64,000 nt of DNA. Origin: Escherichia coli (GTDB taxonomy: Bacteria > Pseudomonadota > Gammaproteobacteria > Enterobacterales > Enterobacteriaceae). The notes under the pieces were generated by a model. The model was not told where the DNA came from, ran no database searches, and was given only the letters and a program-made list of their open reading frames with translations. The stretch lies in the NCBI RefSeq assembly GCF_050920415.1, contig NZ_CP169309.1. One strand, written 5' to 3'. The translations under genes and the position numbers were made by a program. Below are positions 29,969 through 55,676 of the stretch, one piece after another. Each line of letters starts with the position of its first letter. Positions within the stretch are counted from its first letter, which is position 1.

Positions 29969-30529
29969 ATGAACAAGTTTTTATTTGCCGCTGTATTGTT
30001 CGTCAGTGGCCTGCTCGTTGGCTGTAATCAACTCACCCAATACACCATCACCGAACAAGAAATTAACCAGTCGCTTGCGAAACATAATAATTTCTCAAAA
30101 GATATCGGTTTACCCGGCGTGGCTGACGCTCATATTGTTCTGACAAACCTGACCAGCCAAATTGGTCGCGAAGAGCCGAATAAGGTTACCCTAACCGGAG
30201 ACGCCAATCTGGACATGAACTCCCTGTTCGGTAGCCAGAAAGCGACCATGAAACTGAAGCTGAAAGCGCTGCCTGTGTTTGATAAAGAAAAAGGCGCGAT
30301 CTTCCTGAAAGAGATGGAAGTAGTCGATGCGACGGTACAACCGGAAAAAATGCAAACGGTGATGCAAACGTTGCTTCCCTATTTGAACCAGGCATTACGC
30401 AATTACTTTAACCAGCAACCTGCTTATGTCCTGCGCGAAGATGGCAGTAAGGGCGAAGCAATGGCGAAGAAACTGGCGAAAGGTATTGAAGTGAAGCCTG
30501 GTGAAATTGTCATTCCGTTTACTGATTAA
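29969..30529 (+). CDS. yceB: Lipoprotein YceB (DUF1439)
   Basis: ORF 29768..30529; start chosen at MNKFLFAAVLFVSGLLVGC (186 aa) with lipobox LVGC. Confidence 0.9.
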   Translation: MNKFLFAAVLFVSGLLVGCNQLTQYTITEQEINQSLAKHNNFSKDIGLPGVADAHIVLTNLTSQIGREEPNKVTLTGDANLDMNSLFGSQKATMKLKLKALPVFDKEKGAIFLKEMEVVDATVQPEKMQTVMQTLLPYLNQALRNYFNQQPAYVLREDGSKGEAMAKKLAKGIEVKPGEIVIPFTD

Positions 30530-30533
30530 TCAC

Positions 30534-30562
30534 GAGGGCGCATTTGCGCCCTTTATTTTTCG
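30534..30562 (+). terminator. yceB intrinsic terminator
   Basis: gggcgcatttgcgccc hairpin followed by TTTATTTTT. Confidence 0.75.
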
Positions 30563-30565
30563 TGC

Positions 30566-30583
30566 AAAGGAAAACGTTTCCGC
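30566..30583 (+). promoter_or_regulatory. PurR operator in the pyrC promoter
   Basis: aaggaaaacgtttccgc matches the PurR box core (AAACGTTT palindrome); PurR control of pyrC is established knowledge. Confidence 0.7.
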
Positions 30584-30593
30584 TTATCCTTTG

Positions 30594-30623
30594 TGTCCGG
30601 CAAAAACATCCCTTCAGCCGGAG
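30594..30623 (+). promoter_or_regulatory. pyrC leader hairpin sequestering the Shine-Dalgarno (pyrimidine-dependent translational control)
   Basis: tccggc (30596-30601) pairs with gccgga (30617-30622), overlapping the GGAG Shine-Dalgarno upstream of the ATG at 30635. Confidence 0.65.
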
Positions 30624-30634
30624 CATAGAGATTA

Positions 30635-31681
30635 ATGACTGCACCATCCCAGGTATTAAAGATCCGCCGCCCAGACGACTGGCACCTTCACCTCCGCGAT
30701 GGCGACATGTTAAAAACTGTCGTGCCTTATACCAGCGAAATTTATGGACGGGCTATCGTAATGCCCAATCTGGCTCCGCCCGTGACCACCGTTGAGGCTG
30801 CCGTGGCATATCGCCAGCGTATTCTCGACGCCGTACCTGCCGGGCACGATTTCACCCCGCTGATGACCTGTTATTTAACAGATTCGCTGGACCCTAATGA
30901 GCTGGAACGTGGATTTAACGAAGGCGTGTTCACCGCTGCAAAACTTTACCCCGCAAACGCAACCACTAACTCCAGCCACGGCGTGACGTCGGTTGATGCA
31001 ATCATGCCGGTACTTGAGCGCATGGAAAAAATCGGTATGCCGCTACTGGTGCATGGTGAAGTGACACATGCAGATATCGACATTTTTGATCGTGAGGCGC
31101 GCTTTATAGAAAGCGTAATGGAACCGCTTCGCCAGCGCCTGACCGCGCTGAAAGTCGTTTTTGAGCACATCACCACCAAAGAAGCTGCCGACTATGTCCG
31201 TGACGGAAATGAACGTCTGGCGGCCACCATCACTCCTCAGCATCTGATGTTTAACCGTAACCATATGCTGGTTGGTGGCGTGCATCCACACCTGTACTGT
31301 CTGCCAATACTCAAACGCAATATTCACCAACAGGCATTACGTGAACTGGTCGCCAGCGGTTTTAATCGTGTATTCCTCGGCACGGATTCTGCGCCGCATG
31401 CACGTCATCGCAAAGAAAGCAGTTGCGGCTGTGCGGGCTGCTTCAACGCACCTACTGCGCTGGGCAGTTACGCTACCGTCTTTGAAGAGATGAATGCTCT
31501 ACAGCACTTTGAAGCATTCTGTTCTGTAAACGGACCGCAGTTCTATGGTTTGCCGGTCAACGACACATTCATCGAACTGGTCCGCGAAGAACAGCAGGTT
31601 GCTGAAAGCATCGCATTGACTGATGACACACTGGTGCCATTCCTCGCCGGGGAAACGGTACGCTGGTCCGTTAAACAATAA
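30635..31681 (+). CDS. pyrC: Dihydroorotase
   Basis: 348-aa ORF with metal-binding HxH motif (DWHLHLRD). Confidence 0.97.
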
Positions 31682-49291: not shown

Positions 49292-50045
49292 GTTGTCACC
49301 CTGGACCTGGTCGTACATTTAAGAAATTAAATCATTTCAACTTGGTTGTTAACGCAACCTGTATTTTGTTAACGCTGCGTTACGATGGAAAGTATGTCTG
49401 CGGAAATATTTTTAATAACTCACCCGCGCGTTGTATTTTTCTTTTTTTGTTCATACCAAAGTATTAAAACCCACGTAAATACGCTGTTATCTACGCAAAA
49501 AAATATTTTGTTTTCTTTTAAATTTCGGTTTTCCGCAATCAAAAATCACCAGACAGTCATTCTTCTTGCCCGTCGCTGATTGCTGCGATATGTCTTGCGC
49601 ACAAGCCGTGACAAACCTCGTCTTTTTGCAGTAAAAAATTGTCCACGGAGGTGTGGAGAAAAAACAAGAACGTTTTACATGACGAAAGGACTACACCGAA
49701 ATATTTTTTATATGCATTATTAGCAAGTTAGCACCATTTGTATGATTTTTTAAAATTGTGCAAGAAAAACCAAATGTACAACTTTTCTATCATTTCTAAA
49801 CTTAATAAAACCTTAAGATTAACATTTTAATATAACGAGTTACATTTAGTTACATGTTTAACACTTGATTTAAGATTTGTAATGGCTAGATTGAAATCAG
49901 ATGTAATCCATTAGTTTTATATTTTACCCATTTAGGGCTGATTTATTACTACACACAGCAGTGCAACATCTGTCAGTACTTCTGGTGCTTCTATTTTAGA
50001 GGCAGCTGTCAGGTGTGCGATCAATAAAAAAAGCGGGGTTTCATC
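49292..50045. promoter_or_regulatory. csgBAC / csgDEFG divergent intergenic control region including the csgD promoter and 5' UTR
   Basis: 754-bp AT-rich interval between divergent csgB and csgD; established binding region for OmpR, CpxR, IHF, H-NS, RstA and MlrA, and the csgD leader is an sRNA target. Confidence 0.75.
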
Positions 50046-50696
<651 letters not shown>

Positions 50697-55588: not shown

Positions 55589-55676
55589 GGTGAGGTGTCC
55601 GAGTGGCTGAAGGAGCACGCCTGGAAAGTGTGTATACGGCAACGTATCGGGGGTTCGAATCCCCCCCTCACCGCCA
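55589..55676 (+). tRNA. serX: tRNA-Ser (anticodon GGA)
   Basis: 88-nt cloverleaf: acceptor stem GGTGAGG/CCTCACC, long variable arm, T-loop GGTTCGAATCC, anticodon loop CTGGAAA, 3' GCCA. Confidence 0.93.

Follow-up and report, generated by a model that had tools for sequence, protein, structure and literature searches.

The short intergenic region upstream of pyrC in the window (the whole stretch of E. coli DNA that was analysed, 64,000 nucleotides) raises the question of which controls it carries and whether any of them departs from those already described for this gene. The region is almost certainly the native E. coli pyrC promoter and leader with two independent controls that have been characterised before, a PurR operator in the promoter and a hairpin at the start of the leader. 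The system is already known and nothing in it is new; the initial annotation had called it known rather than novel, and this judgement holds, the leader being a member of a curated Rfam family with a sequence identical to that of K-12. The region serves as a positive control, a classical regulatory region that is recognisable from raw sequence. pyrC offers one of the clearest examples of RNA polymerase itself sensing nucleotide pools, by start-site choice, and a two-base difference at the 5′ end of its mRNA decides translation. To this picture the present analysis adds the near invariance of the region in ~5400 E. coli genomes, the co-occurrence of operator and stem, and an AGAG insertion in Escherichia. 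The K-12 identity, Rfam membership, operator score, conservation and stability of the hairpin by 5′ end were obtained here, while the actual start sites, the nucleotide sensitivity, the translational block and the binding of PurR are taken from the literature.

Identity and boundaries of the pyrC control region

The open reading frame at 30635–31681 (+ strand), defined by the ORF list and by E. coli genome annotation, encodes a dihydroorotase of 348 amino acids and is annotated as pyrC in 5422 E. coli genomes. The stretch 30566–30634, aaaggaaaacgtttccgcttatcctttgtgtccggcaaaaacatcccttcagccggagcatagagatta, leads directly into the pyrC ATG at 30635. On its 5′ side the control region is bounded by the intrinsic terminator of yceB (30534–30560, +), recovered by the terminator scan as a stem at 30534–30553 followed by TATTTTT; the last base of the yceB stop codon is at 30529. 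These limits make the pyrC control region an intergenic unit of ~75 bp that stands by itself. The yceB terminator directly adjoins the −35-like hexamer of pyrC. An open reading frame of 44 amino acids at 30501–30635, considered as a leader peptide or small ORF, was rejected; it spans the yceB 3′ end and the terminator.

A stretch of 321 bases around the region (30440–30760) finds a match in 5425 of 5426 complete E. coli genomes, with annotated yceB and pyrC beneath it. From −89 to +91, counted from the pyrC ATG, the window and K-12 MG1655 (NC_000913.3) have the same sequence, and the comparison with the studied K-12 leader, which the initial annotation had proposed as a check, gives base-for-base identity. 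Promoter and leader are therefore the exact sequence used in the published experiments, and none of the control elements differs from those of the K-12 pyrC promoter-leader (RF02372; Wilson et al. 1992, Liu and Turnbough 1994, Choi and Zalkin 1990). The sole intergenic mismatch to K-12, a T where K-12 has C, is at 30545 in the yceB terminator loop. Over the final ~95 nt of the yceB coding sequence seven sites are unlike K-12, and within 30440–30760 the differences are clustered in that coding sequence. Of the 5425 E. coli genomes, only 20 reach at least 99% identity to the same stretch, and the others stand at ~97%. By these comparisons the window carries yceB of a less common allele or lineage and the common form of the pyrC control region.

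Within E. coli the region is nearly invariant. The 85 nt at 30556–30640 occur unchanged in 5359 of 5424 genomes, even the poorest match having 84 of 85 bases, and the 41-nt core at 30590–30630, which holds the start sites, both arms of the hairpin and the Shine-Dalgarno sequence, is identical in 5414 of 5424. The weakest match to this core, in E. coli MS10495, has A changed to T at 30629, within the AGAG sequence and outside the stem. One genome, E. coli ST2747 (NZ_CP007393.1, 560–700), carries a deletion that fuses the yceB 3′ end to pyrC at roughly codon 95. The terminator, the promoter, the leader and the start of the PyrC protein (its N-terminus) are gone, and pyrC is annotated as a frameshifted partial pseudogene; this is gene loss and not a leader variant. 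The deletion could be that of a real pyrimidine auxotroph or an assembly error.

Promoter and PurR operator

The −10 hexamer TATCCT (30585–30590, +) agrees with TATAAT at four of six positions and constitutes the first six positions of the RF02372 model. Spacing and conservation point to GTGCAA (30562–30567, +), with three of six matches to TTGACA and 17 bp upstream of the −10, as the −35-like hexamer. A scan with the consensus promoter found no sigma-70 promoter at pyrC because the hexamers match just 7 of 12 consensus positions. Between these two putative hexamers, 16 of the 17 spacer bases are occupied by the PurR operator (PUR box) AGGAAAACGTTTCCGC (30568–30583, +), a 16-bp imperfect palindrome located with the PurR matrix. 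Its palindromic core, AAACGTTT at 30572–30579, had been described as intact in the initial annotation and is so. This placement of a PurR box between −35 and −10 is the arrangement found at 44% of PurR-regulated promoters (PMC3159470).

The PurR weight matrix was built from the 28 ChIP-supported motif instances in Table 1 of PMC3159470, a table from which pyrC itself is absent. With 17.0 bits, AGGAAAACGTTTCCGC ranks first among 127,970 positions on both strands of the 64-kb window, where the runner-up reaches 14.8 bits, and it outscores 7 of the 28 training sites. It also fits 11 of the 14 specified positions of the PurR consensus ACGNAAACGTTTGCNT given in the same paper (PMC3159470). The operator score is beyond chance. 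Two adjacent matches to the matrix, of 14.8 and 14.2 bits, lie at 50655–50686 on the − strand, in the 3′ end of a LuxR-type ORF (50046–50696) that is csgD by its sequence and its csgEFG-like neighbours, and another match, of 14.0 bits, lies at 9513. These are at background level and most likely due to chance.

A PurR dimer with hypoxanthine or guanine would bind the 16-bp operator across the −35/−10 spacer and, once bound, would compete with RNA polymerase, giving a modest repression of pyrC. Direct repression of pyrC by PurR, which in vitro binding and mutational work supports, is credited to Choi and Zalkin 1990 and to Wilson and Turnbough 1990 by two articles (PMC3159470, PMC6245113). Its extent is likened to the three- to fourfold repression at carAB P1 and said to be far weaker than that at pur genes (PMC6245113). 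PurR control of pyrC is weak. The papers of 1990 are said to have put it at about 2-fold.

These modest effects bear on a second reading of the 16-mer, in which it would be nearly or wholly inactive in vivo and kept as a promoter spacer, with purine control negligible or indirect. Besides the small size of the reported repression, the right half-site of the operator, TTTCCGC, lacks the G of the consensus TTTGCNT, and 27 of the 28 ChIP sites have GC there. ChIP-chip in vivo recovered 13 of 15 known PurR sites and did not detect pyrC, an absence for which the authors offer no explanation (PMC3159470). Set against this are the top matrix score in 64 kb, above a quarter of the ChIP-supported sites, the cited binding and mutational work, and the core itself, which four other lineages have at constant spacing from the −10 and which is lost alongside the hairpin in the distant leader L184 described below. 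We consider an inactive box unlikely and retain the reading of AGGAAAACGTTTCCGC as a working, weak operator.

Leader hairpin and start-site choice

The leader matches the Rfam family RF02372 (PyrC_leader) at 30585–30634 on the + strand, over model positions 1–50 of 50 and with 68.7 bits where the gathering score is 50; E is between about 1e-8 and 1e-11, by the stretch searched. The match ends at 30634, directly before the ATG at 30635 and on the strand of pyrC. The structure line of the family specifies a 5-bp CCGGC/GCCGG stem with a 15-nt loop, and the window has the same hairpin at 30597–30621 (+), with the 5′ arm CCGGC at 30597–30601, the loop at 30602–30616 and the 3′ arm GCCGG at 30617–30621. 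The initial annotation had drawn a hairpin of tccggc (30596–30601) and gccgga (30617–30622) overlapping GGAG; the hairpin and its overlap are present, but the 6-bp stem gives way to a conserved stem of 5 bp, as in Rfam. The additional outer pair, T30596–A30622, is missing in three of eight related leaders and can form only in transcripts that start at T6.

The Shine-Dalgarno sequence GGAG (30620–30623, +) lies 11 nt before the ATG and shares its first two bases with the 3′ arm, or three if the outer U–A pair is counted. Alignment places a second Shine-Dalgarno-like sequence, AGAG (30627–30630, +), between GGAG and the ATG. Liu and Turnbough in 1994 reportedly identified the upstream GGAG as the functional pyrC Shine-Dalgarno sequence. 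The alternative start sites T6, C7, C8 and G9, named by base and by distance past the −10, fall at 30596, 30597, 30598 and 30599 (+), a numbering that Wilson et al. 1992 and Liu and Turnbough 1994 reportedly used.

At high CTP/GTP, transcription of E. coli and Salmonella pyrC starts with C, 6–7 nt past the −10, and the two extra C residues let a 5′ hairpin form and sequester the ribosome-binding site; when CTP/GTP is low, G is the first base and translation of the mRNA proceeds (PMC6524683, PMC4491880). The C positions in the window fit the C starts given by the review at 6–7 nt after the Pribnow box, and this CTP/GTP-sensitive start choice was reported for the K-12 sequence to which the window is identical (PMC6524683). 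K-12 identity, the RF02372 match and the two reviews together uphold the classical pyrimidine-sensitive start-site switching that the initial annotation had named. The same mechanism is reported for S. Typhimurium pyrC (PMC6524683).

Applied to the window, this model would run as follows. RNA polymerase at the pyrC promoter would have a choice of several neighbouring start bases. At a high level of CTP relative to GTP it would start mainly at C7 (30597), giving a transcript with CCGGC at its 5′ end; CCGGC would pair with GCCGG 20 nt downstream to form a 5′-terminal hairpin that holds the first bases of GGAG, and ribosomes would be unable to load. When CTP is low and GTP high, the start would move to G9 (30599), the two C residues would be missing and a 3-bp stem would be left. 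GGAG would then be accessible and PyrC would be made.

Minimum free energy (MFE) folds were computed for transcripts with different 5′ ends, all ending at 30640, and the cost of unpairing GGAG is given as a range over three 3′ ends. A start at T6 gives an MFE of −9.7 kcal/mol and an unpairing cost of 7.1–7.8 kcal/mol, and a start at C7 gives −8.1 kcal/mol and 5.6–6.3 kcal/mol. The cost falls to 2.5–3.9 kcal/mol for a C8 start and to 0.4–3.6 kcal/mol for a G9 start, with an MFE of −3.0 kcal/mol for the latter. In C7 transcripts the hairpin is the MFE structure, with stem pair probabilities of at least 0.97. By this computation two 5′ nucleotides shift the accessibility of the Shine-Dalgarno sequence by roughly 2.5–5 kcal/mol, and the predicted difference between C7 and G9 narrows to about 2.5 kcal/mol with longer 3′ context, a narrowing that is a limit of the thermodynamic model. 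The computed shift has the direction and scale that the published model would require.

The whole leader is beyond chance. The hairpin taken alone is neither beyond chance nor a thermodynamic outlier: its fold z-scores are −1.3 to −2.1 against dinucleotide shuffles, and pyrC ranks eighth of 50 long ORFs in the window in the cost of opening the ribosome-binding region (−38 to +6 folded). The case for the hairpin is made by its identity to the studied sequence, by the Rfam model and by conservation, and not by thermodynamic oddity.

A stem at the extreme 5′ end of the C7 transcript might instead act mainly on mRNA stability, shielding the message from RppH and RNase E rather than blocking ribosome binding. 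Stem-loops at the 5′ end are known to stabilise mRNAs such as ompA. In addition, translation status affects the decay of the longer transcript (PMC6524683). A stabilising element would, however, be expected to yield more PyrC from the C7 transcript, whereas repression at high CTP is what has been published (PMC6524683, PMC4491880); moreover, the 3′ arm reaches into GGAG, and the cost computed for opening it follows the 5′ end. A role mainly in stability is thus highly improbable, and sequestration of the ribosome-binding site remains the preferred function of the stem.

E. coli pyrBI and pyrE use UTP-sensitive attenuation (PMC4491880), and the pyrC hairpin could by analogy be taken for a transcription attenuator or terminator. 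The stem, however, is followed by GCCGGAGCATAGAG and no T-run, from the start sites to the ATG the leader, of ~38 nt, encodes no leader peptide, and the terminator scan finds the yceB terminator alone and none in the leader. The lack of a T-run and of a leader-peptide ORF therefore excludes an attenuator of the pyrBI/pyrE type, and we assign a negligible probability to termination as the role of this hairpin. Like pyrC, the pyrBI, codBA and upp genes exemplify "repression without repressors", in which RNA polymerase senses nucleotide pools at initiation (PMC6524683, PMC4491880); they differ in using UTP-sensitive stuttering at T-runs and/or a terminator hairpin, neither of which the pyrC leader has. 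The closest parallel in mechanism is the pyrD leader of E. coli and Salmonella, with the same CTP/GTP start-site switching and a 5′ hairpin over the ribosome-binding site (PMC6524683). pyrD also has a PurR box, CGGAAAACGTTTGCGT; unlike pyrC, it is another gene at a locus outside the window, and its PurR site was detected by ChIP-chip (PMC3159470).

Conservation beyond E. coli

Related leaders were collected by pattern scans. DWHLHLRDG, run on genome contigs, retrieved dihydroorotases across Proteobacteria and Cyanobacteria, with three true Enterobacteriaceae loci among the matches listed; RRPDDWHLH, run on metagenome contigs, gave four Enterobacterales-like loci among the matches listed (L164, L195, L234 and L184), whose PyrC proteins are 93, 92, 87 and 72% identical to that of the window. 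The relatives compared are E. albertii (L050), Citrobacter werkmanii (L039), Superficieibacter electus (L064) and these four metagenomic loci, a small comparison with the Salmonella, Klebsiella, Yersinia and Serratia leaders outside the sample.

E. albertii is identical to the window over the whole control region. Citrobacter, L164, L195, Superficieibacter and L234 all have GTGCAA, a PurR box, TATCCT, CCGGC, GCCGG and GGAG, and the PurR box of Citrobacter, Superficieibacter and the metagenomic relatives is ACGAAAACGTTTCCGC, in the same place and again at 17.0 bits. In the alignment, GTGCA and GGAG are invariant in all eight related leaders and TATCCT in the seven that keep the system, with TATGCT in the distant L184. 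Both arms of the stem are invariant in seven of the eight, around a loop of 15 to 27 nt and variable sequence. Kept arms around a free-running loop would be the pattern expected of a functional stem. No compensatory changes occur in the stem among the eight leaders, with no pair altered on both sides; since the invariant arms are also constrained as start-site DNA and as part of the Shine-Dalgarno sequence, this comparison cannot separate RNA pairing from those constraints. The RF02372 threshold is passed by E. albertii, Citrobacter, L164 and L195, and failed by Superficieibacter and L234, which have longer loops, as well as by L184 and the outgroups.

The initial annotation had named leader variants without the complementary arm as evidence against its reading. 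One such variant was found, L184 (metagenome contig SMLE01000569.1; PyrC 72% identical), and it narrows the phylogenetic range of the system while leaving its function in E. coli untouched. The L184 arms read CCGCC/GCTGG, with a C–C mismatch and a G–U pair, and its predicted structure is independent of the 5′ end; TATGCT and GGAG are kept. The PurR box is gone, the best score being 1.3 bits, and both controls seem to be absent together. Upstream of Shewanella and Rheinheimera pyrC, neither a PurR box nor the stem was found. The range of the system is limited to Escherichia and close relatives, which has no bearing on its function in E. coli, where the arms are invariant.

Leaders of the Salmonella/Citrobacter type share with the window the −10, the CCGGC/GCCGG stem, GGAG and the place of the PurR box; the features given here for this type come from Citrobacter-like leaders, the Salmonella sequence itself lying outside the sample. 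They differ at position 2 of the PurR box (C, where E. coli has G), in the start region (TTGTTTCCGG versus TTGTGTCCGG in the window) and in a 17-nt loop of different sequence. They also have GGAG 7 nt from the ATG and no AGAG, compared with 11 nt in the window. AGAG between GGAG and the ATG is confined to Escherichia leaders, being absent from the Citrobacter-like leaders, Superficieibacter and L234, and the spacing of GGAG to ATG is accordingly 11 nt in Escherichia and 7 nt where AGAG is lacking. It is conceivable that the Escherichia PurR box is no longer an operator in vivo and is kept as a spacer, and that the AGAG insertion may have given the translational switch a different setting from that in Citrobacter- and Salmonella-type leaders. 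Such a loss of PurR function in Escherichia would fit the missing ChIP-chip signal; we regard this combination as quite improbable, and, if true, it would be a lineage-specific modification of a known system and not a new system.

One further candidate relative was set aside. L052 (CAMDRJ010000024.1), labelled as a metagenome-assembled genome of Klebsiella pneumoniae, carries a non-enterobacterial pyrC: its PyrC N-terminus, MMNQSIELTTPDDWH, is non-enterobacterial, its upstream region is GC-rich and a class A RNase P RNA lies on the contig, which was probably mis-binned. Elsewhere in the window, other Rfam matches above the gathering score are the rne 5′ UTR element (8518–8854, +), the SraB sRNA (6489–6657, −), the ES056 sRNA (49899–49990, +), which lies just upstream of the csgD-like ORF, and a tRNA (55589–55673, +).
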